Assembly (NCBI RefSeq): GCF_037042905.1
Contig: NC_087251.1
Span: forward strand, 35,342,001 to 35,406,000
Direction: 5' to 3'
Length of the DNA: 64,000 bases
From: Lytechinus pictus
Lineage: Eukaryota
This document shows, one piece after another, positions 2,495 to 28,800 of this stretch (position 1 is the first letter of the stretch; every line of letters begins with the position of its first letter). The translations under genes were made by a program, and so were the position numbers. Under the pieces are notes generated by a model, which saw only the letters and a program-made list of their open reading frames with translations, ran no database searches and had not been told where the DNA came from.

Positions 2495-2946
2495 TAGACC
2501 AGCTCGTAGTTACTTCTGGGACAATTTTGGTCAAATGACCTTTCATTTCTTTCATTATGATAGGCAGATTTCAAAGCAAGATATTACGTAAGCTTGCCTT
2601 ACATAGCAGGATGAAGAAATTGAATAGACCAGGTGACTAGAATAGCACACCAATGAACACTTTATGGATGTATTTGTTGTATTCCTACTTTAAATGCATA
2701 TCATAGCATGTTGCACAATGTACTTGGCAAACTGTGAAATACCAGTCGTTCGTGGACGCATTGTTGTTTTTTGTGGATGTAAATGAAAACCACAATTTAA
2801 AAGAATATATGAATAACCAAGACATCAAAGTTGGTACTTATCTCATTAGATTTTAAACCACCATGTCACTTTAGTACAAATGACCTTCCTCTGATCATGC
2901 GTAGAATCTTTTGATCATGCGCAGAAAGGAACTACGAACTGGCTTA
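2495..2946. mobile_element. Non-autonomous DNA element with imperfect TIRs
   Basis: TAGACCAGCTCGTAGTTAC ... GGAACTACGAACTGGCTTA, with TTAA on both flanks. Confidence 0.55.
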
Positions 2947-3029
2947 TTAATGTTATACCATTCATGAATAGCTCATTAACATATGTATTGTTAGGTTTGG
3001 TCCGGGCAGTGATTGTGCCTTTACTTGAA

Positions 3030-3155
3030 TAATATAGGGTATTTATATTGCGCACATATCCACCTTGTTAGGTGCTCAAGGCGCTCCTATATTACCCGGC
3101 TAAGCTAGGCGTTCATAGCGCACACAGCTTTTTAAGGAATTACTTCCTACCGGTC
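3030..3155 (-). mobile_element. SINE/LINE 3' fragment with L2-type tail
   Basis: Reverse complement GCGCCTTGAGCACCTAACAAGGTGGATATGTGCG resembles the L2 3' end at about 39340-39375. Confidence 0.65.
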
Positions 3156-3571
3156 CCTTTTGACCTGGGCAGTGATCCGGTGCTTTGACCAGATACTTGG
3201 CATGTTTTAGGGAAAGGATGTGTGTGCCTATAGCATTAAAAAAAATGTCAATTAGATTTCAAATACGCATCTTCAGACATGGAGTTGGCAAGCCACGTAG
3301 CCTACTAAATGGCATGCGAATAGGGGAGAGAAGGACCAAAAGCTGGGATGATGGCGTCCCAACGGATACTAAAAGATGACTTGACGTTTTGAAGTAGCGC
3401 GTTATGGACAGAGATAGAACGACAGAGAAAAAGGTGGAGATAGACAGAGAGATAAAGAATTCATTATGAACTCAAGAAGAAGGATTAAATGATATTCTGG
3501 CAATTAAGTGGCTCCTTAATAATGTTGACCAAAATCGGATATATCTAATACCGTGTTTTTTTTTCTTTCAG

Positions 3572-3694
3572 GTCTTAAAACACCAGAAAAACCTCCATCA
3601 TTTTGTGAAACGATCTGTGAAGGATGCACCTCGTAGTCGTCGACAAAGAAGAAGCATTGATGATGCTGCCACTCTACTGAAACAAGACCCTATG
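3572..3694 (+). CDS. PCSK2: PC2 coding exon (prodomain, internal RQRR basic site)
   Basis: ttttctttcag|...|gtaaga boundaries. Translates VLKHQKNLHHFVKRSVKDAPRSRRQRRSIDDAATLLKQDPM, which resembles the PC2 prodomain (YHF...RRRS...L..DP.V) and joins the next exon in phase 0. Confidence 0.85.
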
Positions 3695-4274
3695 GTAAGA
3701 ACCATCTATCTGACCATTATCCGTGGCCCACTTTGAAAACCTCACCGGAAGAGTCAGAATATTTTGACCACTAAAAAAAGAAAGATCATAGGATACCGCA
3801 ATTTTAGCCTAAAGCACTTTCCTATGAATATAATCCTGACAAGAAACCAAAAATATTAATATCTATATATGAATAAGAAAGGTGGTTACTCTGCCCCTTG
3901 AGTCCCTACGCCAACATGTACGCTAGTGTCCACAGTGGAGTGTCAAATGCGGCGTACGTGACTTGTATACTTCAAAATACGTGCGACAGCTTACCATCAC
4001 ACTAGCACATGAGGCCGCACATGATTGGCGAACAATTCTCCTCTCTTTTTGTACTTTTCAGGTAACTGATAATGTATGCCAGAACAAACCTATGGTATCA
4101 TGATGCGATCTGCTGGTAAAATACGATGATGTCGTTCATCTGGGTAAAAATGTAATTGGTGCATGGTGGTAAAAAAAATCGTACACCTAATATAGTTCAC
4201 CAAATGGCGCATGGGGGATTTCGTCTATTGAAATCATCATCCTCACGGTCCTGGGAGCGGGGTGCTACGAATAT

Positions 4275-4402
4275 GTTATAGCAGGGTCCGCTGGGAAAAC
4301 AGTTTTCAGAACTGAAGTGGCTTCCCTGGGTAAATATACCTATATTATTATTGTTATTATTATTATCATTATTATTATCATTATTATTATTATTATTATT
4401 AT
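4275..4402 (+). mobile_element. Retroposon 3' end with (TTA)n tail
   Basis: CAGGG...CAGTT/AACTG...CCCTG stem-loop followed by about 60 bp of (TTA)n. Confidence 0.5.
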
Positions 4403-6052
4403 ACGCAATAGGCAGCATCCCTTAGAAATCCGGTTGGTATGCTAAAAATGTTAATGTATACATTTTACCAAAATCACCTATATTTTTGAGTAATTTTTTT
4501 ATTTTAATTATATATGTGTGTGTGTATATGTATTTGTATATATTTTTTTTTTTTTGGGGGGGGGGCTTATCAAACTTTTTCTGAGCCAAAATATCTTCAT
4601 TTTCGAGTGAACCTAACATTTTTTTTCAACAGCCAGCAGTACCCCTTCTTAAAAAATCGTTCCCATAAGATGCGATAAAAAAGGAGATCGAGTTTATACA
4701 TAATCGCCAAACGTGACATGTCTGTTTCAGAGAACCAGTTCAAATATCAAGTCACATGATTTCAATACACAGTTGCAAATATGAAGATGCCCCTGCAGGC
4801 TGCAGTGCTTATTGTCTTACAAATTCCATTTCATCAGGTGATGAAAATAAACAACAACATTAAAACTATGTTCAGATATCCAATTACCGTTCTTCCATTT
4901 AACAGAATTGAAATCTTCATTCACGAGCTTGAATGTGTGTTTCCATAGAGCAATGTCTCGTTTTGTACTTATTTTATCACTTGACCCCTCGTGTTTTTCT
5001 GTGTCGCTTGAGATGCTTTAACTATGAAAATGACAGGCATTATAATGGTGTAGTATTTAAAACCTAATTTTTTATCACCCTCCAGCGCCATGGCTGATAT
5101 ACTGCTGTAGACAGTTTAATATTTATTTCACGACAGTTTAAAACTAATGGCAAAACTCTAAGGCCCATGGCCATGATAGTCATGATTTGAAACGTTGATA
5201 AAGGGTTCAAATGTACAGAAATCTCAAAAAATGGGCTTTTGGGGTTAATTCGTTGGAGCCTGGTAGTATCGAAGACTGTCTACCAGTATGCCAATTTCAA
5301 TAAGTTTCCCTAAATGATGATTTTAATTAGATGATCTTAATTATTGGACAATCATATTGAATTAACTAAAGAGCAACCTGTACTCTGATAGAACACTTTC
5401 AAACTTATAGATCCAATTTTTGGAGCACTCGATTGGTAATTTATTGAATTCCCCTTGTATTTATATTGGTATCTTAGCATTTCCCGATTGGTATATGTAT
5501 CACATCAGAAATGGTTCTTCTTAATTACTTTGATATCAAAAGTAGATGTTGACATAATAATAATATGATAACGATTCTCAAGATATATCTGTACTAGCAA
5601 AGTCTACACATGCCATGCTTATTTTATGGTAAGCATTTTTAAGAAGATGACGAGGTAATATGTGGTTACGTAACAAAAGTACTATCAGCAATAGTGAGTT
5701 GATTGATAATCAACGATCCGGGATTTATTGATTGCTCAAAAATAACTACATTGTATCTTATTGCAAACGGTTCATTTCTGAAAAATGCATGTATTTGGCC
5801 TTTTCTAGGGCAAATACTGTTTTGAAGATTTGCACAAACTTTTTAATATTTCATCATCTTCCATTTTAATAAAAAATAAATCCTTCTTAATCGTTCCATG
5901 AACCATAAATCTTTCAATTTTCTTTAAAAAATGCCAGTCTTGCGATTGGTTCCTTGTAAATATCCACCATAGTATATTCCTGAGATGCTTGTTTTGCTCT
6001 AATTTGTAACCCGATTCTTTAATATGATTTCAATCATAATAAAGACTTTCAT

Positions 6053-6661
6053 GAAACCTGGCTGTATTTGAAAAAAAAACGGCAGTGGGAGTTTCTTCTT
6101 TTGGAGATATAACTTCCAAAAACAAAATAACTCTTTTTGGGGGGATATGAACTACCAATAACCAGTTCAAAATTCCAATCTCCTATTTAATTTACCCTGT
6201 AATAATTAGAAACTTGGCTGTAATTGAAAAAAACGGCAGTGGGAGTTTCTTCTTTTGGAGATGTAACTTCCAAAAACAAAATAACTTTTTTGGGGGGATA
6301 TGAACTACCAATAACCAGTTCAAATTCCAATCTCCTATTTAATTTTCCCTGTAATAATTAGAAACTTGGCTGTAATTGAAAAAAACGGCAGTGGGAGTTT
6401 CTTCTTTTGGAGATGTAACTTCCAAAAACAAAATAACTTTTTGGGGGATATGAACTACCAATAACCAGTTCAAATTCCAATCTCCTATTTAATTTTCCCT
6501 GTAATAATTAGAAACTTGGCTGTAATTGAAAAAAACGGCAGTGGGAGTTTCTTCTTTTGGAGATGTAACTTCCAAAAACAAAATAACTTTTTGGGGGGAT
6601 ATGAACTACCAATAACCAGTTCAAAATTCCAATCTCCTATTTAATTTTCCCTGTAATAATT
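6053..6661. repeat. Tandem repeat, 4 copies of about 150-156 bp
   Basis: GAAAC(C/T)TGGCTGTA recurs at 6053, 6209, 6361 and 6511; units differ mainly in homopolymer lengths. Confidence 0.95.
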
Positions 6662-11957: not shown

Positions 11958-13849
11958 CACTACTCAAAAAAAGTTAAGGACCACTTTTTAAAACGTAAAG
12001 ATTTTATACAAGGTGTTTTATTTCTGGAAATACCTCAGTACAACTGTCCTAAATGTCCTTAAACACGCTGTAATTAATTTCACGCATGGGTGGTTTCAGT
12101 TGTTGCACAATGTCTCTCGCATCACTGCACATCCTGAAAAGTGGGCCCCGAGGGGTATCAGCTACCGACATGAAGTGGTAAAAACGAATGTCTGAGTGTC
12201 TTTCAGGCAGTTCAGTAACGAGTGTGACCACCTCCTGCAGCAATAACGGCTTCACAGCGCTGTCTCATGGAGCTGATGAGGCGATTGATGTCTCTGACGT
12301 CCAGTGCATCCCATGCAGCCTCCAGAGCCACACCCAGCTGCTGCAGTCCAAGTGGATGGGCTTCGAGCTGCTCGAGACTCCTCCCCATCATGTCCCAGAC
12401 GTGCTCTATCGGGTTTAAGTCCGGGGACCTCGCTGGCCACTCCATACGCTCAATCCCCTGGCCCTCAAGGAACTCGGTCACCACCCTAGCTCGGTGGGCA
12501 CGGGCATTGTCATCCATGAAAATGATGTTTTGTCCCACATTTTCTGCAAATGGCACCACTATAGGTTCAAGGACCTCATCCCTGTACCTCACTCCTGTCA
12601 TTGCTCCCCCTGGGACCACGTAGAGACGAGTACGGTTGGCGTAGGTGATGCCTCCCCACACCATGACGCTGCCTCCCCCATAACGGTCATGTTCTGCAAT
12701 ACAGGGGTCTGCAAATCTCTCTCCTGGTCGCCTCCAGACTCTCGAACGTCCATCATTGTGGTCAAGGGAAAATCTGCTCTCATCTGTGAACAGAACTCTA
12801 CGCCATTGCTGTCTGGTCCATCTGACATGCTCCCGGGCCCAGTTGAGACGAATTCTTCTGTGAGCAGGGGTGAGTGGGACACACTGAGCTGGCCGTCTGG
12901 CATGCATATTGGCTCTGTGAAGTCGGTTACGGATTGTTTGAGTGGAAACAATCACTCCAGTTGCTGCAGCGAAGTCATTGTTGAGGCGGCGTGCACTGTG
13001 AAAGCGGTTGCGGAGGCTGAGATTCGTCAAGTAGCGATCATCTCTAGAGGTTGTCGAAACTGGTCGGCCACTGCGGGGTCTCTCGGAGTATAGCCCTGTC
13101 TCTCGGTGTCTTTGATTTGCTCTGCTAATGACACTGTGTGACACGCCCATCATTCTGGCTACTCTTCGCTGACTGAGGCCAGCTTCCAGCATCCCTAGGG
13201 CTCTGGCTACATCTGTTTCACTTAGGTGGTGTCTTGGCATTGCTGTTGTAGGCAAGTTGTTGATTGTACAGACTAAAGACGGAAAATGCTTTGGAAGACA
13301 CTTGTATTATGGCCCACTGCAATGATGCCAGAGACATCATGAAAGAACTGCATGTGTGAAATTGATGTCATTGTGTTTGATGGCATTCTGGACAGCTGTA
13401 TCTTGGCATTGCTATTGTCAGCAAGTTGTTGATTGTAGAGACTAAAGACAGAAAATGCTTTGGAAGCCACTTTTGTACGGGCACATTGCAATGATGCAAG
13501 AGACATGAAAGAACTGCATGTGTGAAATTGATTTCATTGTGTTTGATGGCATCCTGGACAGCTGTATCTTGGCATTGCTGTTGTCAGCAATTTGTTGATT
13601 GTAGAGACTAAAGACAGAAAATGCATTTGAATCCACATTTGTACCACTTCACAATGGGCCCACTTTTCAGGATATGCAATAATGCGAGAGACATCATGCA
13701 ACAACTGAAACCACCCATGTGTGAAATTGTTACAGGGTGTTTGAGGAGATTCAAGACAGCCATATTCGGGTATTTCTAGAAATACAACACCCGGTTTGAA
13801 AATTGTATACACACATTAAAAAGTGGTCCTTAACTTTTTTTGAGTAGTG
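11958..13849 (-). mobile_element. Full-length Tc1-family (DD34E) DNA transposon
   Basis: Perfect 34-bp TIRs CACTACTCAAAAAAAGTTAAGGACCACTTTTTAA (11958-11991 and 13816-13849), TA on both flanks, imperfect inverted similarity extending to about 220 bp, and an intact transposase ORF. Confidence 0.96.
12212..13240 (-). CDS. Tc1 transposase, 342 aa, uninterrupted
   Basis: ATG at 13240 (MPRHHLSE...). Paired-like HTH region with GRP motif, VLFTDESRF, and MDDNARAH...SPDLNPIEHVW with 34 residues between the second catalytic D and E. Confidence 0.95.
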   Translation of the reverse strand: MPRHHLSETDVARALGMLEAGLSQRRVARMMGVSHSVISRANQRHRETGLYSERPRSGRPVSTTSRDDRYLTNLSLRNRFHSARRLNNDFAAATGVIVSTQTIRNRLHRANMHARRPAQCVPLTPAHRRIRLNWAREHVRWTRQQWRRVLFTDESRFSLDHNDGRSRVWRRPGERFADPCIAEHDRYGGGSVMVWGGITYANRTRLYVVPGGAMTGVRYRDEVLEPIVVPFAENVGQNIIFMDDNARAHRARVVTEFLEGQGIERMEWPARSPDLNPIEHVWDMMGRSLEQLEAHPLGLQQLGVALEAAWDALDVRDINRLISSMRQRCEAVIAAGGGHTRY

Positions 13850-14189
13850 TATATATATATATATATACACTACTCAAAAGGGTAGATAGCTCTGGGGAAC
13901 CTTGATTTAAGCTACGCCTACCATTGTTCTCTTCATCCATTTCTTTCACACAATATTTAAATATAAAAGAGTTGCCAAAGCTGTAGTACATGTATAACTT
14001 CACACATGTGTATACTTTCTCCCATACGTGTGCTGTATCAAAGCAATAGCTTTGATCCAGCTGAGGCATGGCGGCTTGTCATTGTTCAAAACCCACCTTC
14101 ACCCGACAAAGGAAATTATAATTGGTATGGTGTCGAAAATCTGTCTATCTGACGGTCAATTGAATCGGGGTCGCCCTAGCCACTAACCC

Positions 14190-14261
14190 GTCTCTGTGGT
14201 CTAGTGGTTAAGGCACCGGCGTTCAAAGCTGGGGGCCCGGGTTCGATTCCCGGCAGAGGCA
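14190..14261 (+). tRNA. tRNA-like gene, anticodon TCA (copy 1)
   Basis: Hand-folded 72-nt cloverleaf: GTCTCTG/CAGAGGC-A, D stem GTCT/AGGC, anticodon stem CCGGC/GCTGG with loop GTTCAAA, T stem CCGGG/CCCGG with loop TTCGATT. A and B boxes present, followed directly by TTTTTT. Function unproven. Confidence 0.6.
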
Positions 14262-14601
14262 TTTTTTCGGCATCACCAATTTTTCCAAAAAGGGTAGATA
14301 GCTCTGGGGAACCTTGATTTAAGCTACGCCTACCATTGTTCTCTTCATCCATTTCTTTCACACAATATTTAAATATAAAAGAGTTGCCAAAGCTGTAGTA
14401 CATGTATAACTTCACACATGTGTATACTTTCTCCCATACGTGTGCTGTATCAAAGCAATAGCTTTGATCCAGCTGAGGCATGGCGGCTTGTCATTGTTCA
14501 AAACCCACCTTCACCCGACAAAGGAAATTATAATTGGTATGGTGTCGAAAATATGTCTATCTGACGGTCAATTGAATCGGGGTCGCCCTAGCCACTAACC
14601 C

Positions 14602-14673
14602 GTCTCTGTGGTCTAGTGGTTAAGGCACCGGCGTTCAAAGCTGGGGGCCCGGGTTCGATTCCCGGCAGAGGCA
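14602..14673 (+). tRNA. tRNA-like gene, anticodon TCA (copy 2)
   Basis: Identical to copy 1. Confidence 0.6.
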
Positions 14674-15013
14674 TTTTTTCGGCATCACCAATTTTTCCAA
14701 AAAGGGTAGATAGCTCTGGGGAACCTTGATTTAAGCTACGCCTACCATTGTTCTCTTCATCCATTTCTTTCACACAATATTTAAATATAAAAGAGTTGCC
14801 AAAGCTGTAGTACATGTATAACTTCACACATGTGTATACTTTCTCCCATACGTGTGCTGTATCAAAGCAATAGCTTTGATCCAGCTGAGGCATGGCGGCT
14901 TGTCATTGTTCAAAACCCACCTTCACCCGACAAAGGAAATTATAATTGGTATGGTGTCGAAAATATGTCTATCTGACGGTCAATTGAATCGGGGTCGCCC
15001 TAGCCACTAACCC

Positions 15014-15084
15014 GTCTCTGTGGTCTAGTGGTTAAGGCACCGGCGTTCAAAGCTGGGGCCCGGGTTCGATTCCCGGCAGAGGCA
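15014..15084 (+). tRNA. tRNA-like gene, anticodon TCA (copy 3, one G fewer in the variable region)
   Basis: As copy 1, but the G5 run reads G4 (mutation or homopolymer error). Confidence 0.5.
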
Positions 15085-15424
15085 TTTTTTCGGCATCACC
15101 AATTTTTCCAAAAAGGGTAGATAGCTCTGGGGAACCTTGATTTAAGCTACGCCTACCATTGTTCTCTTCATCCATTTCTTTCACACAATATTTAAATATA
15201 AAAGAGTTGCCAAAGCTGTAGTACATGTATAACTTCACACATGTGTATACTTTCTCCCATACGTGTGCTGTATCAAAGCAATAGCTTTGATCCAGCTGAG
15301 GCATGGCGGCTTGTCATTGTTCAAAACCCACCTTCACCCGACAAAGGAAATTATAATTGGTATGGTGTCGAAAATCTGTCTATCTGACGGTCAATTGAAT
15401 CGGGGTCGCCCTAGCCACTAACCC

Positions 15425-15496
15425 GTCTCTGTGGTCTAGTGGTTAAGGCACCGGCGTTCAAAGCTGGGGGCCCGGGTTCGATTCCCGGCAGAGGCA
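15425..15496 (+). tRNA. tRNA-like gene, anticodon TCA (copy 4)
   Basis: Identical to copy 1. Confidence 0.6.
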
Positions 15497-15836
15497 TTTT
15501 TTCGGCATCACCAATTTTTCCAAAAAGGGTAGATAGCTCTGGGGAACCTTGCTTTAAGCTACGCCTACCATTGTTCTCTTCATCCATTTCTTTCACACAA
15601 TATTTAAATATAAAAGAGTTGCCAAAGCTGTAGTACATGTATAACTTCACACATGTGTATACTTTCTCCCATACGTGTGCTGTATCAAAGCAATAGCTTT
15701 GATCCAGCTGAGGCATGGCGGCTTGTCATTGTTCAAAACCCACCTTCACCCGACAAAGGAAATTATATTTGGTATGGTGTCGAAAATCTGTCTATCTGAC
15801 GGTCAATTGAATCGGGGTCGCCCTAGCCACTAACCC

Positions 15837-15908
15837 GTCTCTGTGGTCTAGTGGTTAAGGCACCGGCGTTCAAAGCTGGGGGCCCGGGTTCGATTCCCGG
15901 CAGAGGCA
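15837..15908 (+). tRNA. tRNA-like gene, anticodon TCA (copy 5)
   Basis: Identical to copy 1. Confidence 0.6.
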
Positions 15909-16064
15909 TTTTTTCGGCATCACCAATTTTTCCAAAAAGGGTAGATAGCTCTGGGGAACCTTGATTTAAGCTACGCCTACCATTGTTCTCTTCATCCATT
16001 TCTTTCACACAATATTTAAATATAAAAGAGTTGCCAAAGCTGTAGTACATGTATAACTTCACAC

Positions 16065-16103
<39 letters not shown>

Positions 16104-17074
16104 CTGTCCCTCAAGTATAAGCTATCGAATAAGGTGTTAGTATTGTATGGATGATAAATAGATGAAATAAATAGTGGTCATGAAAATGGTGTATACATAC
16201 CAAATAAAAAAGAATGAACAAAAACATATAAAGGTGATATTCTATACAATTATATTTTTAACCCGTAATTAGTAGTAGGCTTTGCAACATTAAATGTTGA
16301 ACGTGGCGTCAATTCTGTAATAAAAGTGTCTTTATCCCTTTTATTGCCTGACAATAGGATAATACAAATGTTGTATGGGTGGTAAAAGACAGTCGTTGCA
16401 TGCAAAATGTGACCTTTGCGTACTATTAATGCGTGACTTGACCTTGTTTTCACTACATGGATATCCACCGCAATGCAGCAGTCGCTTTCACAGCGGTAGA
16501 TAGTATGTACCATCGACCAATGCTTAAGGCTTCACACATTACATACGTAGTCCCTCTCAACCGCCATTTCGACGCCATATGGAAGGATTCAGAATTTTAA
16601 AATATGAACCAAAATGGCTTCAAAGGGAGAGTTAGCTCGTGGTATCGGTAATGGTATACGGGATTGTTATTTTTAACCTCATTTTTGCAAAATGTAACCA
16701 ATTAATGCATTTTGATTCATCCGTTTTGCATAAAATGGCATTAATTACTTTATTTTGGTTTGGCTGCTCCCGAATGCATGAATGGGTAACTGAGGTATTT
16801 GCAGTATTGTCTTTATTAGAGGGAGAATTTCCATTTGGGGGATATCGCTCAATACTTGTCTGGTCATTTCTCGTTAAAACACCCTCCTTTGTACATGTTG
16901 TGGATTGGATTTGGCATGAGTCAATAAAGTCAATAATAAAGTATGCTTCAACTTAGAGTGGGAGTGAAACCCTTCTGATTCAAACAAACTGGTATATCGC
17001 TTTACCTATTATAATCTCCGTGAGTGAATCGTTATTGGCTTTCCAATATCGGTTTCTTTTCGGTAATTTGGCTT

Positions 17075-21833: not shown

Positions 21834-23458
21834 CTGGTATGACTTGGGCATAAAGCTGTGAACTACGCGATGTGATGCTCGCGACGATGAGGTATCATGC
21901 CACGGTCACACTGGCTCAAGCGACTCCATCCCGACAAGAAAGTACTACGTTAGTAGTTAATGGATAGACCTGGGCTCACTTGACCTTTGACCTACTTAAC
22001 CTTTGACCTTTGACCTTTGACCGCATGACCTTTGACCCCAACTTCCGGTCACTGTGGACCCCGTGACCCCACCTTCCGGTCAATCATGACCTTTGACCTT
22101 TGGGTACGCGGTAAACAGGAAATTGGATAATGAAGCGCGGGACGCGATTTTAATTGGATAATGACTCCGCGTGGGGACGCGATTTTAATTGGATAATGAC
22201 TCCGCGTGGGGACGCCATCTTAATTGGATATGAGTCCACGTAGGGACTCGATCTACAGGAAATTTAATTAACCTCCGCGTGGGGTGATCTCCCGCGCCCT
22301 CGTTGACCCAGACTTCCGGCCAGCCACAACGTCACCATGAATCGGTATTACGACACAGTTACGCAACCACGGCCGTGATGTCATATCCCAGGGAATTACC
22401 CTTTACCCGGTATTGCACCACCGTGGCGCAATCGTCACGTATAGGATACGATGCACAAAACAGACGTATGATTTCTGCACAGTTTCCTATCGAAAAAAGG
22501 ATCTTTCTCCGCCTTCCAGCGGATATGTCAACCGCCTCGCATGACGTCACCGGCTACGCAAGCACCGTGATGTCATCCCAGGGAATTCCCCTTATCCCAT
22601 CGTATCGGTATGGCACCACCGTGGCGCAATCGTCACGTATAGGATACGATGCACGAAACAGACGTATGATTTCTACACAGTTTCCTATTGAAAAAATTAT
22701 CTTTCTTTGCCTACCAGCAGATATGTCGAACCCGATATGTCAAGTGCCTCGCGGTTCACGAATCGATCACCCCACTCACGACCAACGCCCGTCATTGAAC
22801 TTGGGGATATCCTATTCAAGGTGAAAGCCGGCTCTCTCTGTCTCTTATTACAACAATTATTGGTAATCCAACATGTGATTATAATCCTGATAACAGTGGC
22901 ATCTCAAGCTCTACTCATTCCAGACTTTCCCCCATCAAAACTCTCTGACTTTTCCATACTGTTTTGTACATACCTCCATACTTTTCATTTTAACTCACAT
23001 GACCTGCACGGCTCTCTGACCCGCAAAAGTATACTATATTGAAACCCGTAGACGACTCCTTTCAATCAACTTCATTCATCCGCAGTACAGATGGTGATAA
23101 CATGAAACACTATACAGTCAAGGATGATTCTTTATTATTACTATCATTTATTCTATTCCATTTCAATGTAGATAGGTTCAATTAGTGTATAAACAGCAGA
23201 TTTTGATACAAAGGTAAAAATAATGTAAGATATGTTCTCAAATTACGTTGTCACAACAAAATAATTAACTGTTCATTGTTAATACTAAAGTGAAGTTCTC
23301 GTTTTTTCTTTTCCTTCGCTTAACTTATTGGATTGTAACACGTGTCTATGGATGGCATTCAGAAAATATGAACACAATGAAGTTCAAACTGTCATTTATG
23401 CCCGCATTTATGTTGACGGCGTTTTCTTGGATTATTCGACAAGCTGAGGTTTGTGCCT

Positions 23459-24109
23459 TTAGTTGTAGGTTCCATCTTCACCCTCCGTTTCTTCTCCACC
23501 ATCATCATTATCGTCATCGTCACCTTGATACTGGAATAAACCATCGAATTGTGAACCATGCCTGGCTAACACTCTCTGTACGGCTTTCCGGAATTCCATG
23601 CCATTCTCTAATCTTTCCGTGAGATCGGACACGATTTCATGATTGATGTCAGCGTCTTCGAGGTACACGTTCTGCTGCAAGAACTGAGAGTACAGATCGA
23701 AAAAGATGCGTTTGACTGCCCAGAGTAGTTTCACGTGAGCCTTTGCTTTAGCGTCTTCTTCTTCCATTCCTTCTGAGATGTATTTCTGATATTTTTCGTC
23801 TCTCAAGTCCTTGGTGGCCGTCATGGCTTGCTCTAACCATCCTCGATAAGCGAGGTTGTCTTCAGTTTCTTCCATGTTTGTTGTCATTGACGATTCGTGT
23901 CCATCGCTTTCTGATACGCTCGTTTCGGAATCACCGTTGGATTCTTCAACTCTTTGCATTTGAGAGGATGGGTCGGATTCTTCATCTTCACTCGTTTCTT
24001 CTCCAGTATCATGCTCAATTTGTTCATGCCTCTGCATATCATACTTCCTACTAAAAGTTTTATCGCATCGTGAACAAGCGTAACGGTTGGACATATCCAA
24101 TATATTCAT
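23459..24109 (-). CDS. C2H2 zinc-finger/acidic protein, about 216 aa (left-arm copy)
   Basis: First ATG gives MNILDMSNRYACSRCDKTFSRKYDMQRHEQIEH (C-x2-C-x12-H-x4-H), then an acidic linker, a probable helical domain and an acidic tail. Confidence 0.8.
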   Translation of the reverse strand: MNILDMSNRYACSRCDKTFSRKYDMQRHEQIEHDTGEETSEDEESDPSSQMQRVEESNGDSETSVSESDGHESSMTTNMEETEDNLAYRGWLEQAMTATKDLRDEKYQKYISEGMEEEDAKAKAHVKLLWAVKRIFFDLYSQFLQQNVYLEDADINHEIVSDLTERLENGMEFRKAVQRVLARHGSQFDGLFQYQGDDDDNDDGGEETEGEDGTYN

Positions 24110-24201
24110 GCTGACTCGATGATTATTTGTTGGGAAATGAAGAAAATTAACGTTCAAACTTGTAATTATACGTAATCATGAAACGAGCGCGAAGGTACTT
24201 T

Positions 24202-24536
24202 GATTCTTACGGATGTTTACGGATTCTTACGGATGTTTACGGATTCTTACGGATTCTTACTCATTCTTACTCATTCTTACTCATTCTTACTCATTCTTAC
24301 GGATTTTTTACGGATTCTTACGGATGTTTACGGATTCTTACGGATGTTTACGGATTCTTACGGATGTTTACGGATTCTTACGGATTCTTACTCATTCTTA
24401 CTCATTCTTACTCATTCTTACTCATTCTTACGGATGTTTACGGATTCTTACGGATTCTTACGGATTTTTTACGGATTCTTACGGATTCTTACGGATGTTT
24501 ACGGATTCTTACGGATTCTTACGGATTTTTACGGAT
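24202..24536 (+). repeat. 10-bp minisatellite (CGGATTCTTA/CGGATGTTTA/CTCATTCTTA variants), left arm
   Basis: Directly visible tandem units. Confidence 0.97.
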
Positions 24537-24615
24537 TAATCAATGCCTTCATATAATCTCAAGGAAAATATGTTCATCCACGCTAGAATGACCCATGTGG
24601 GTCATTCCAACGTGG

Positions 24616-25062
24616 ATCCGTAAGGATCCGTAAGAATCCGTAAGAATCCGTAAAAAATCCGTAAGAATCCGTAAGAATCCGTAAACATCCGTAAGAATCC
24701 GTAAAAAATCCGTAAGAATGAGTAAGAATGAGTAAGAATGAGTAAGAATCCGTAAGAATCCGTAAACATCCGTAAGAATCCGTAAACAATCCGTAAGAAT
24801 CCGTAAGAATCCGTAAGAATCCGTAAACATCCGTAAGAATGAGTAAGAATGAGTAAGAATGAGTAAGAATGAGTAAGAATCCGTAAGAATCCGTAAACAT
24901 CCGTAAGAATCCGTAAACATCCGTAAGAATCCGTAAACATCCGTAAGAATCCGTAAAAAATCCGTAAGAATGAGTAAGAATGAGTAAGAATGAGTAAGAA
25001 TGAGTAAGAATCCGTAAGAATCCGTAAACATCCGTAAGAATCCGTAAACATCCGTAAGAATC
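24616..25062 (-). repeat. Same 10-bp minisatellite, inverted and longer, right arm
   Basis: TAAGAATCCG, TAAACATCCG and TAAGAATGAG units. Confidence 0.97.
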
Positions 25063-25154
25063 AAAGTACCTTCGCGCTCGTTTCATGATTACGTATAATT
25101 ACAAGTTTGAACGTTAATTTTCTTCATTTCCCAACAAATAATCATCGAGTCAGC

Positions 25155-25805
25155 ATGAATATATTGGATATGTCCAACCGTTACGCTTGTTCACGATGCG
25201 ATAAAACTTTTAGTAGGAAGTATGATATGCAGAGGCATGAACAAATTGAGCATGATACTGGAGAAGAAACGAGTGAAGATGAAGAATCCGACCCATCCTC
25301 TCAAATGCAAAGAGTTGAAGAATCCAACGGTGATTCCGAAACGAGCGTATCAGAAAGCGATGGACACGAATCGTCAATGACAACAAACATGGAAGAAACT
25401 GAAGACAACCTCGCTTATCGAGGATGGTTAGAGCAAGCCATGACGGCCACCAAGGACTTGAGAGACGAAAAATATCAGAAATACATCTCAGAAGGAATGG
25501 AAGAAGAAGACGCTAAAGCAAAGGCTCACGTGAAACTACTCTGGGCAGTCAAACGCATCTTTTTCGATCTGTACTCTCAGTTCTTGCAGCAGAACGTGTA
25601 CCTCGAAGACGCTGACATCAATCATGAAATCGTGTCCGATCTCACGGAAAGATTAGAGAATGGCATGGAATTCCGGAAAGCCGTACAGAGAGTGTTAGCC
25701 AGGCATGGTTCACAATTCGATGGTTTATTCCAGTATCAAGGTGACGATGACGATAATGATGATGGTGGAGAAGAAACGGAGGGTGAAGATGGAACCTACA
25801 ACTAA
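25155..25805 (+). CDS. C2H2 zinc-finger/acidic protein, about 216 aa (right-arm copy)
   Basis: Mirror copy with identical translation; TATAAT at about 25095 upstream and AATAAA at 26112-26117 downstream. Confidence 0.8.
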   Translation: MNILDMSNRYACSRCDKTFSRKYDMQRHEQIEHDTGEETSEDEESDPSSQMQRVEESNGDSETSVSESDGHESSMTTNMEETEDNLAYRGWLEQAMTATKDLRDEKYQKYISEGMEEEDAKAKAHVKLLWAVKRIFFDLYSQFLQQNVYLEDADINHEIVSDLTERLENGMEFRKAVQRVLARHGSQFDGLFQYQGDDDDNDDGGEETEGEDGTYN

Positions 25806-28800
25806 AGGCACAAACCTCAGCTTGTCGAATAATCCAAGAAAACGCCGTCAACATAAATGCGGGCATAAATGACAGTTTGAACTTCATTGTGTTCATATTT
25901 TCTGAATGCCATCCATAGACACGTGTTACAATCCAATAAGTTAAGCGAAGGAAAAGAAAAAACGAGAACTTCACTTTAGTATTAACAATGAACAGTTAAT
26001 TATTTTGTTGTGACAACGTAATTTGAGAACATATCTTACATTATTTTTACCTTTGTATCAAAATCTGCTGTTTATACACTAATTGAACCTATCTACATTG
26101 AAATGGAATAGAATAAATGATAGTAATAATAAAGAATCATCCTTGACTGTATAGTGTTTCATGTTATCACCATCTGTACTGCGGATGAATGAAGTTGATT
26201 GAAAGGAGTCGTCTACGGGTTTCAATATAGTATACTTTTGCGGGTCAGAGAGCCGTGCAGGTCATGTGAGTTAAAATGAAAAGTATGGAGGTATGTACAA
26301 AACAGTATGGAAAAGTCAGAGAGTTTTGATGGGGGAAAGTCTGGAATGAGTAGAGCTTGAGATGCCACTGTTATCAGGATTATAATCACATGTTGGATTA
26401 CCAATAATTGTTGTAATAAGAGACAGAGAGAGCCGGCTTTCACCTTGAATAGGATATCCCCAAGTTCAATGACGGGCGTTGGTCGTGAGTGGGGTGATCG
26501 ATTCGTGAACCGCGAGGCACTTGACATATCGGGTTCGACATATCTGCTGGTAGGCAAAGAAAGATAATTTTTTCAATAGGAAACTGTGTAGAAATCATAC
26601 GTCTGTTTCGTGCATCGTATCCTATACGTGACGATTGCGCCACGGTGGTGCCATACCGATACGATGGGATAAGGGGAATTCCCTGGGATGACATCACGGT
26701 GCTTGCGTAGCCGGTGACGTCATGCGAGGCGGTTGACATATCCGCTGGAAGGCGGAGAAAGATCCTTTTTTCGATAGGAAACTGTGCAGAAATCATACGT
26801 CTGTTTTGTGCATCGTATCCTATACGTGACGATTGCGCCACGGTGGTGCAATACCGGGTAAAGGGTAATTCCCTGGGATATGACATCACGGCCGTGGTTG
26901 CGTAACTGTGTCGTAATACCGATTCATGGTGACGTTGTGGCTGGCCGGAAGTCTGGGTCAACGAGGGCGCGGGAGATCACCCCACGCGGAGGTTAATTAA
27001 ATTTCCTGTAGATCGAGTCCCTACGTGGACTCATATCCAATTAAGATGGCGTCCCCACGCGGAGTCATTATCCAATTAAAATCGCGTCCCCACGCGGAGT
27101 CATTATCCAATTAAAATCGCGTCCCGCGCTTCATTATCCAATTTCCTGTTTACCGCGTACCCAAAGGTCAAAGGTCATGATTGACCGGAAGGTGGGGTCA
27201 CGGGGTCCACAGTGACCGGAAGTTGGGGTCAAAGGTCATGCGGTCAAAGGTCAAAGGTTAAGTAGGTCAAAGGTCAAGTGAGCCCAGGTCTATCCATTAA
27301 CTACTTACGTTATCACTAACGGTGTGACCGCAACCTCATGTATTGACACCATTTCAACAACCTGAGCAAACAGAATGACAAGGGGCTTGTTGGCATGAAA
27401 GGTGTACTCACTTTGATCTCTCGAGCTTTCTCCCTGGCAACGTCTGACCGGAATAGCGCCACCATAGGTCACGTTTAAGATGCGTGATTATTTTGCCTAT
27501 AGGCTTTAAAGCGCCCATCTGTCAAACATTAATGTGTATACAGATAATGATTTTTATTATTTTTTAGTTTGACTTACTTTTCCTCATCAATTTCCATTAT
27601 TTCAACATTTTATAACAACATGTTTCATTAATATTTTTTTTTTAGTATAAATAAAATCTTTGTTCATCTTAATTACAACTATAGCAATATTTGGTTCAGG
27701 TTATTCTTCAAGTTCAAGTTTAATTTCATTTTTTTTTCTTCAACCGAACAATTTTTTTTCTTCAAGTATTAATGATAAATAACAATGATTAAAACAAAAC
27801 ATTACATATGATTTATATGTGATATAAAAATACGGCAATGATCATTTCGAATAAATTTTACTCAGTATTCCCTCTTGGTGACGATTGGTCAAAATTACCA
27901 ATGTCAGTGAATGTGCCGGTGAATGATTAATGCGTCTCGTCAAAATTGGGGATAGACTGACCATCTGAAATGCTCTTTCACAAAATTACTTGTGTTCAAA
28001 CATGTTAGATAATGACACTCAACAATTTGATATTTTGATAAATCCGCGTTGTGTTTGTAAGGTGGGAAACAGGGGTATCATATCACGTGAGCGTAGGTGT
28101 AGTTCATTACTCGTTCGATCGTAAAGTCTCGTGCATAAATGCATTCGATGATAGAGCTTTTATCAAAAAAGGATCAAAACCTTATCAGCAATTCATGTCA
28201 TTCAATCTCAACCTTATGTTATAATTCATTCTTGCAAGCGGCGACAGGATTAGTTACAAAGTCACGTTGGAAGAATATGTTAGTCCCTTGTAGAATGAAG
28301 CAAGGGGGCGGAGGGCGGCCGCGCCCTTTGGTAGTGTGAAAGGAGGGGGGGGGGAGAAAGTAAGAAAGAAAAGTATAGAAAGGATAGTTTAGGCCCTATA
28401 GTTCTGGAATAGCCATTTGATTAAAATGGACAAAATGGAACGCCACCTTTTGATTGCCCCCCCCCCTTACATCAAAACATCCGGACGCCGCTTCTGGTAT
28501 AAAGAGGGGCACTACATCAAGTAGAGTACTACCATCACGTGGCTGACACGGGGGCAATCTCTAGAGAACCAGCGAAGCACTTACATCTTTGTGAGAGAGT
28601 GAGCTGCATGAAGGTCAACAGCGGCCATAATGAGGGGCACTTTGAAAAAAAAAAGAAAAAAAAGGAGAATTAAGGGAAAAGAAATAACAGCATGAAAAAG
28701 CAAGGTAAAAGTCATGCAACTCTATACCCCTTAAATTCAATTGATAAAGATATAGGTCGTCTACCCCCCCCCCCGCATAAAAAAAACCTGGCGCCGCCCC

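Follow-up and report, generated by a model that had tools for sequence, protein, structure and literature searches.

Palindromic elements with Polinton termini and a zinc-finger gene in each arm form a probably Polinton-dependent family in the sea urchin Lytechinus pictus

What is a DNA element that consists almost entirely of two mirrored arms, ends like a Polinton and carries none of the genes of one? The question is raised by a 64,000-nucleotide stretch of the sea urchin Lytechinus pictus (contig NC_087251.1, positions 35,342,001 to 35,406,000 of the forward strand; referred to here as the window), in which positions 21952 to 27305 form an element of 5354 bp that runs from AGTAGT to ACTACT. 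Polintons, also called Mavericks, are widespread virus-like elements of animals. An earlier note, made from the letters of the window, had described the element as a palindromic miniature Polinton integrated in trans, and had suggested that it arose when one end of its parent was copied back on itself (snap-back) and that it may have spread as a family of its own. Our analysis supports much of this description but not the origin from a parental Polinton end. In all likelihood, the element is one copy of a multicopy, nonautonomous, palindromic family that depends on Polintons, an old lineage mobilized in trans. With similarly high confidence we describe the plan of a copy as about 350 bp of Polinton terminal inverted repeat (TIR) at each end, a core of about 2.2 kb with a gene, and a minisatellite with a short center.

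Direct reading of the sequence places the bounds of the element where the earlier note had placed them. The junctions read TACGTT followed by AGTAGTTAATGG on the left and CCATTAACTACT followed by TACGTT on the right, a 6-bp target-site duplication (TSD) on both sides (Table 1). An inverted-repeat search paired 22003-24537 with 24727-27261 (2535 nucleotides [nt], 99% complementary), and BLAST of the element against itself aligned its positions 1-2581 with 2781-5354 at 99.46% identity (5 mismatches, 3 gap openings). Aligned globally as far as the minisatellite (2250 versus 2243 nt), the arms show 0 substitutions and one 7-bp indel, an extra TTGACCT unit on the left at 21999-22005; all 5 BLAST mismatches therefore lie in the minisatellite. 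These values agree with what had been seen by eye, namely, arms of about 2.6 kb that differ by one 7-bp unit and by minisatellite length, and about 80 bp of unique sequence in the center, which we measured as 78 bp. Also as noted earlier, the list of open reading frames (ORFs) and the Pfam results contain no DNA polymerase B (PolB), integrase, ATPase or capsid ORF inside the element, and a duplicated C2H2 zinc-finger ORF is its only ORF with a family match. One account defines Polintons as elements that encode a protein-primed PolB and a retrovirus-like integrase (PMC5499653). The element has neither and is hence filed here as a dependent derivative, not as a Polinton proper.

Table 1. Features of the window element, helper Polintons and further families. 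Positions are those of the window unless a contig (C) is named.
Feature	Position	Strand	Size, ends, TSD or basis
Left TSD, TACGTT	21946-21951		Identical to 27306-27311
Whole palindromic nonautonomous element	21952-27305		End motifs, TSD, arm alignments
Left terminal module, element positions 1-351	21952-22302	+	Homologous to TIRs of PolB/integrase-bearing Polintons
TTGACCT 7-mer array, inside left terminal module	21980-22037		Tandem-repeat search
35-bp repeats, inside left terminal module	22121-22252		Tandem-repeat search
Left outer and middle arm, noncoding by the searches run	22303-23458		ORFs without Pfam family; absent from helpers
Direct duplication of about 198 bp in left arm	22408-22529 / 22606-22727		Repeat search
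Left zinc-finger gene	23459-24106	-	ORF, Pfam match, homologues, dN/dS
Left 10-bp minisatellite, unit GATTCTTACG, 33.4 copies	24202-24537		Tandem-repeat search
Unique 78-bp center	24538-24615		Junction common to other copies
10-bp inverted repeat with 2-nt loop, inside center	24586-24607		Beside symmetry axis
Right 10-bp minisatellite, 44.3 copies	24616-25062		Tandem-repeat search
Right zinc-finger gene, identical to left copy	25158-25805	+	ORF, arm alignment
Right terminal module, mirror of 21952-22302, one 7-bp unit shorter	26962-27305	-	Homologous to helper TIRs
Right TSD, TACGTT	27306-27311		Read directly
Helper on C6	C6:1299810-1316732		16,923 bp; TSD CATATT
Helper on C21			17,227 bp; TSD GATCCA
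Helper on C17			16,195 bp; TSD ATCATG
Family 2	C20:8817011-8822079		5069 bp; AGTAGT ends; TSD CACACT
C19 element (L052+L053)	C19:4647614-4662238		14,625 bp; AGTAGT ends; TSD ATGGCG; 3446-bp TIRs at 100%
Family 3	C6:1965035-1969649		About 4.6 kb; 98.8% palindromic; ends AGCAGC...GCTGCT; TSD CATTGG

Many copies of the element exist, and an architecture that recurs at so many loci goes far beyond chance. Genome searches were run on an 812-Mb assembly and scored the best candidates only. The first 349 bp of the element gave 99 matches (best 40 of 140 candidates scored), and a degenerate 20-nt terminal pattern, AGTAGTTANNGGNNAGACCT, allowing at most 1 mismatch, matched 93 times forward and 78 times in reverse, compared with 18 forward and 11 reverse matches for its reversed control. 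A manual count among the first 100 matches listed, at a spacing of at most 7 kb, yielded at least 35 complete plus/minus terminus pairs, and the copies differ in sequence as well as in size (2.5-6.9 kb). A perfect 6-bp TSD flanks 13 of the 15 copies checked, 9/10 in one batch and 4/5 among further complete elements; a batch of 11 pairs had been reduced by one, a segmental duplicate with a truncated left end. Every TSD is different, for example, GGGGTC, TGGCGT and AGCGAC. The central 78 bp recurs at 90-98% in copies L045, L046 and L049 and in an array on contig C6, and in part in an array on contig C17. Many loci were thus found that have the central junction in common and carry different TSDs, and the suggestion that the element spread as its own family is borne out. 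Because the central junction is common to the copies, the palindrome had a single origin and was propagated in palindromic form thereafter. Judged from these sequences, the inverted duplication clearly happened once in the past of the family. A 2.5-kb one-arm copy (L048), in which 33 bp of minisatellite abut a 46-bp terminus, looks like the product of a deletion rather than an ancestral form. DNA contigs from sequencing runs under two other organism labels contain parts of the family; under one of these labels, the matching part is mostly the zinc-finger coding region, at a likeness of at least 95%.

Some copies occur in tandem or in duplicated segments. At C17:8134560-8181418, an array of about 47 kb holds about 11 units of this family (family 1) with a period of about 4.1 kb (loci L031-L034 cover 8148001-8184000). 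Most of its units have a full left arm and a right arm cut at about position 887, with the right terminus gone, and the array appears to be a transposon turning into a tandem, satellite-like array. Two family 1 copies on C5 (41084010-41089619 and 41109312-41114921), about 25 kb apart, have the same right flank and TSD and therefore reflect a segmental duplication that included the element, not two insertions. Two large intervals between family termini, C17:8148001-8184000 and C6:21764001-21794000, were considered as autonomous parents and rejected, being arrays or nests of small elements instead.

Which elements, then, could provide the proteins for mobilization? A genome search with Pfam DNA_pol_B_2 gave 36 matches, and 3 of them lie between termini of family 1, in elements of about 17 kb that we call helpers (Table 1). 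All three have (AGT)2 ends and TIRs of about 300-540 bp with 94-98% identity. They encode a protein-primed PolB (1247 amino acids; DNA_pol_B_2 E 2.2e-34), an integrase (364 amino acids; rve E 1.1e-10; its chromodomain match falls below the Pfam cutoff) and an A32-like ATPase (Pox_A32 E 1.1e-7), and are therefore Polintons. One helper has all 11 examined frames open, the other two have a split PolB frame, and one of these two contains an internal duplication. For vertebrate Mavericks, one study gives an (AGT)2//(ACT)2 end motif, a 6-bp TSD and TIRs of 46-1447 bp with a mean of 402 (PMC8097293), and a 584-bp TIR with a 6-bp TSD is reported in PMC3014272. The end motif, 6-bp TSD, size near 17 kb and few-hundred-bp TIRs of the helpers are these published features. 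No other transposase tied to these termini was found in the sequences examined.

The part of the element that matches the helpers is limited to its positions 1-351, with about 90% identity over positions 1-303. The final 52 common bases are 98-100% identical, and homology then breaks off at a single base position within the helper TIR, 15-17 bp before its inner edge. With blastn at word size 9, nothing of element positions 352-2260 was found in the three helpers, tblastn found no zinc-finger homologue in them, and a check by eye placed all 36 PolB matches at least 20 kb away from each of the 150 zinc-finger matches scored. As the arm core and its gene are absent from the helpers, the element is chimeric: a TIR of helper type is joined to a palindromic core of foreign origin that carries the gene. 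It is hence neither a copy-back product nor a defective-interfering deletion of these extant helpers. This result divides the account in the earlier note. Its link to Polintons holds, as the first 351 bp match the TIRs of three elements with a protein-primed PolB, an rve integrase and an A32-like ATPase and match no other superfamily, and the helper TIRs are indeed short (about 0.3-0.54 kb versus arms of 2.6 kb). The proposed snap-back copy of one parental Polinton end does not agree with the absence of both core and gene from the three helpers; the zinc-finger gene, which was to be sought at one end or in both TIRs of an autonomous parent, is in neither place in them.

What does the core encode? 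The left copy of the zinc-finger gene is transcribed from the center of the element outward to the terminus. The protein has 215 amino acids from the first ATG (the called ORF opens at a TTG further upstream) and combines a single C2H2 finger with an acidic linker and a C-terminal domain that is helical and conserved. We found 18 homologues with 39-92% identity, and their named sources are all L. pictus. Their alignment conserves the finger, with its motif C-x2-C-x12-H-x3-5-H, the acidic linker and the helical C-terminal domain of about 110 residues. Among the 150 genomic matches scored (best 150 of 299 candidates), 129 are without a stop. The ratio of nonsynonymous to synonymous substitution rates (dN/dS), computed on the gene from its first-ATG start, is 0.15-0.17 between family 1 and a second family described below, at a dS of 0.62-0.76, and 0.23-0.70 within family 1, with few changes. 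On the basis of the between-family ratio, the zinc-finger gene is under purifying selection. An AlphaFold2 model of the protein has a mean pLDDT (predicted local distance difference test score) of 61.5, with a confident helical C-terminal domain at residues 94-208. A Foldseek search of the PDB with this model gave no match at an E value of 0.001 or below, and only the finger region resembles solved C2H2 fingers (E > 1). VIA-align wide gave a best Z of 5.8, a value generic among helical proteins, and no fold is assigned. The ESM Atlas returned generic C2H2 clusters only, and no relatives were confirmed in the viral contigs of IMG/VR.

Two arms of the same copy resemble each other more closely than the arms of different copies do. 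Within copies, arm identity is 98.5-100% in 11/11 pairs (0.4-1.85 kb available) and 96.3-99.9% over full elements. Between copies, for which the left arm of the window element was compared with nine copies (the short, misaligned L026 being excluded beyond the TIR), identity is 88-94% in the TIR (9/9 comparisons), 81-99% at positions 352-830 and 98.1-99.7% at positions 831-1450 (8 comparisons each), and 98.8-100% in the covered part of the gene (7 comparisons with data). Both terminal 20-mers are identical within a copy in 35/35 pairs among the first 100 matches listed; one helper carries different terminal 20-mers at its two ends. On contig C1, one copy carries a nonsense codon of its own, and this codon is present in both of its arms. 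By sequence comparison, the two arms of one copy have a more recent common ancestor than different copies do. The palindrome is older than the spread of the family, and arms that evolved independently would be expected to diverge at least as far as copies do. The smaller difference within than between copies, clearest in the TIR, shows that one arm was copied from the other after the family had spread. The termini themselves vary in a defined place, since terminal nucleotides 9-15 form a 7-nt patch between the invariant AGTAGTTA and AGACCT. This patch is identical at both ends of each small element and differs between the ends of one helper, and both patches of that helper also occur in small elements. 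The pattern fits an exchange of the terminal module between helpers and dependants, which appears to have taken place.

The gene is also found in two further palindromic families with other ends. In family 2, the arms of 2377 bp are 99.9% identical, and both carry the gene, which is turned the other way round with respect to the termini. The ends of family 2 are common, over about 810 bp, to a 14,625-bp element on C19, which has a 1114-amino-acid ORF weakly like protein-primed PolB (27% identity and E 3e-11, without a Pfam match). A further C2H2 ORF, of 154 amino acids, lies just inside the left TIR of the C19 element. No integrase was seen among the ORFs of at least 120 amino acids in the C19 element, and no homologue of the zinc-finger gene was found in it. 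Family 3 has a gene that is 53% identical and present in both arms. Families 1 and 3 have the gene directed toward the termini; in family 2 it is directed toward the center. The presence of the gene in both arms of three families with differing ends indicates that the link between gene, palindrome and Polinton-type ends is old and outlived changes of the terminal sequence.

How might such an element move and keep its shape? We hypothesize that the helper integrase recognizes the common ends in trans and makes the 6-bp duplication, and that the helper protein-primed polymerase copies the element, starting at the (AGT)2 ends; a jumping-back role of terminal repeats in the protein-primed start is discussed in PMC8097293. 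A displaced or excised single strand could then fold into a 2.6-kb hairpin, and one arm could be re-copied or repaired on the other during replication or excision, via a panhandle or hairpin intermediate, which would keep the arms identical. Such intermediates are known from other protein-primed linear replicons. Alternatively, chromosomal gene conversion between close inverted repeats would keep the arms identical. Current variants of the helpers would trade terminal modules with the element. We regard the zinc-finger protein as a putative DNA-binding factor for the element itself that would act on the element's own repeats. Most likely it binds element DNA, with the 10-bp minisatellite, 35-bp TIR repeats and TGACCT array as candidate sites. 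We also offer a more speculative idea, to which we give a rather low chance. The zinc-finger palindromes may be old, self-standing "hairpin" satellites that retained a gene of their own and a palindromic body and repeatedly captured the TIRs of active Polintons, with one arm re-synthesized from the other in each cycle via a single-stranded or hairpin intermediate. If this is true, they would be the counterpart, in an animal genome, of the satellite and defective-interfering genomes of protein-primed viruses and would offer a natural readout of how Polintons replicate, a mode that is still unproven.

Other explanations have to be weighed against a Polinton-dependent family with a foreign core. 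A polymerase that turned round on one end of a parental Polinton, with the product spreading as a defective or satellite family, would produce perfectly mirrored arms that end in helper TIR sequence and that far exceed the helper TIRs (about 0.3-0.54 kb versus 2.6 kb), and a 10-bp hairpin does adjoin the symmetry axis. The reversed direction of the gene in family 2 compared with families 1 and 3 is as expected if a monomer with the gene in its middle was copied back from one end in the one case and from the other end in the other, and palindromic defective genomes occur in other protein-primed replicons. We nevertheless regard such a copy-back origin as possible but doubtful. The arm from position 352 to position 2586 is absent from the three helpers (blastn at word size 9, tblastn), the homology breakpoint lies inside the helper TIR and not at its edge, all copies have one junction, so that the event was not recurrent within the family, and no monomeric ancestor was found, L048 looking like a deletion derivative. 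A Polinton that had the zinc-finger gene in very long TIRs from the start and then simply lost its core would likewise be left with two long arms. Long TIRs are indeed present in the 14.6-kb PolB-like element (3446 bp at 100%), and gene-bearing TIRs of about 2 kb are described for butterfly Polintons in a preprint (bioRxiv 10.1101/2025.02.07.637071). However, helpers with the same termini have TIRs of 0.3-0.54 kb without the gene, none of the 36 PolB matches lies, by eye, within 20 kb of a scored zinc-finger match, and the long-TIR partner of family 2 has about 810 bp in common with it and is without a zinc-finger homologue. We consider this explanation improbable.

Two further explanations carry very little weight. 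The long inverted arms, subterminal tandem repeats, tiny center and tandem arrays are those of a foldback cut-and-paste transposon, FB/MuDR-like or P/Galileo-like, that would resemble Polintons at its tips only; foldback families give TSDs of 7-9 bp and are partnered by a transposase of the MuDR or P superfamily. One study describes a foldback element that seeded satellite DNA (PMC4079207). The 351 bp in common with elements that encode a protein-primed PolB and an integrase go beyond mere tips, however, the TSD is 6 bp in 13/15 copies, and the partners found are Polintons, which makes a foldback transposon highly improbable. A palindromic chimera from the long-read library or from assembly errors is hardly credible. 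Long-read data do contain palindromic chimeras, and the flank junction of the window copy is without independent reads, but dozens of loci have the same architecture with distinct unique flanks and matching 6-bp TSDs, the copies vary in size and sequence, and parts of the family occur in runs of two other organism labels. Ginger2/TDD elements, integrase-like cut-and-paste elements that likewise have 6-bp targets and are described with TGTNR termini and an AT-rich RTATAY target (PMC2836005), were rejected as well, as the AGTAGT termini and varied TSDs of the element are unlike those of Ginger2.

Several points speak against a Polinton-dependent family mobilized in trans or narrow what can be concluded about it. 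Mobilization in trans is presumably what happened, and it is deduced only from structure, copy number, distinct TSDs and common termini. Two of the 15 copies checked have no perfect TSD. A helper that bears the zinc-finger gene could have been missed, given that only the best candidates were scored. The right flank junction (27268-27400) is covered by no read or contig in four sequencing runs, and the insertion in the window therefore depends on the assembly. The arm core is without detectable Polinton ancestry, and hence the palindrome may not stem from a Polinton-specific replication error. Gene conversion can explain the identity of the arms without a hairpin and is equally simple. The Pfam zf-C2H2 match of the protein (E 4.5e-5, 24.1 bits) is slightly below the cutoff of 25.2. 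The transcription data are sparse and ambiguous in strand. In one run of RNA depleted of ribosomal RNA, 73 reads with at least 95% likeness fall on the right arm and cover 26/30 bins, on both strands, at low depth and without splice joints. Most reads over the zinc-finger ORF may be antisense, if the first mate is antisense in this library, and expression of the gene is not established from these reads. None of the listed sequencing runs that contain the element is on record as RNA.

The RNA reads are more specific with respect to the helpers. Twelve reads diverge from the window exactly at 26962 and continue as the left end of a helper beside a gene for a PC4-domain protein; transcription at the left ends of helpers therefore runs across the TIR boundary. 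The PC4-domain protein has 231 amino acids (Pfam E 1e-7) and is encoded directly inside the left TIR. Its gene, with the domain of the single-stranded-DNA-binding coactivator p15, lies at L038:2336-3031 (+) and in the same place in the other helpers. From its domain, the protein may serve as the single-stranded-DNA-binding protein in strand-displacement replication. A relation between the zinc-finger protein and the PC4-domain ORF was rejected, the two having no similarity (BLASTP E 18).

How does the family compare with known systems? With autonomous Polintons, it has in common the end motif, the 6-bp TSD and the TIRs, and the first 351 bp of the element are homologous to local copies. It differs from them in the absence of a protein-primed PolB, integrase, ATPase and capsid, in its size (5.4 versus about 17 kb), in consisting almost wholly of arms, whose 2.6 kb compares with the 46-1447 bp published for vertebrate TIRs, and in carrying a gene that the helpers lack. 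Long-TIR Polintons, such as those of butterflies in the preprint cited above and the C19 element, also have identical arms of kilobase length with genes in both, but they keep a large unique core with the polymerase, whereas the center of the window element has 78 bp. Copy-back genomes are known as adenovirus incomplete particles with large inverted repeats and as hairpin or palindromic derivatives of yeast linear killer plasmids. The element resembles these snap-back genomes in its near-identical inverted arms with a short turn-around (78-bp center, 10-bp hairpin), in mirrored genome ends that bear the replication origin, in its presumed dependence on a helper polymerase and in one arm copied from the other. 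It differs from them in that the interior of its arms is not helper sequence, in being integrated in many copies with one inherited junction and in encoding its own selected protein. Nonautonomous DNA transposons like miniature inverted-repeat transposable elements (MITEs) similarly have only the terminal module in common with their partner and an unrelated interior; compared with them, the window element is far longer, palindromic throughout and coding, and its partner is self-synthesizing and virus-like. The Drosophila foldback transposons FB, Galileo and Tetris (PMC4079207) have long inverted arms, sub-repeats, a small center and arrays like the element, which differs in its 6-bp TSD, Polinton termini and conserved protein gene in each arm. 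Our full-text literature searches returned no paper that describes a multicopy palindromic nonautonomous Polinton, and Repbase or Dfam may catalogue such elements. Sea urchin TU elements are foldback transposons as well, and our literature search gave no paper using that term. Within the literature found, the term "nonautonomous polintons" is used for Tlr1 only (PMC5499653).

Why does the family matter? To our knowledge, the replication and mobilization of Polintons have never been directly observed, and dependent derivatives are barely described. With its dozens of young copies, the family appears to be a clear case of trans-parasitism on Polintons, and it is of value chiefly as a way into Polinton replication and parasitism. 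Within a copy, arms and termini are uniform, while the termini differ from copy to copy; this contrast provides a measurable footprint of replication or repair at Polinton ends. A conserved and selected gene travels only with the parasite across three diverged families, which suggests that it functions in the parasite's own life cycle. In addition, the family shows that an animal genome can maintain dozens of near-perfect palindromes of 5 kb, although such structures are usually deemed fragile.

Some minor features of the termini and the window can be added. Seen by eye, TGACCT/AGGTCA half-sites, arranged as direct repeats, and CCGGAAGT motifs crowd both termini of the element (21980-22100 and 27160-27280), and the same half-sites and motifs are present in the helper TIRs. 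We take these motifs to resemble nuclear-receptor and ETS binding sites, a likeness that would suggest the recruitment of host factors to the element ends. Outside the element, the window contains a unit of about 150 bp in three tandem copies with 86-100% identity (6136-6587) and, at 13820-16234, six 412-bp tandem units that are nearly 100% identical and have a raised G+C content (0.45-0.47).

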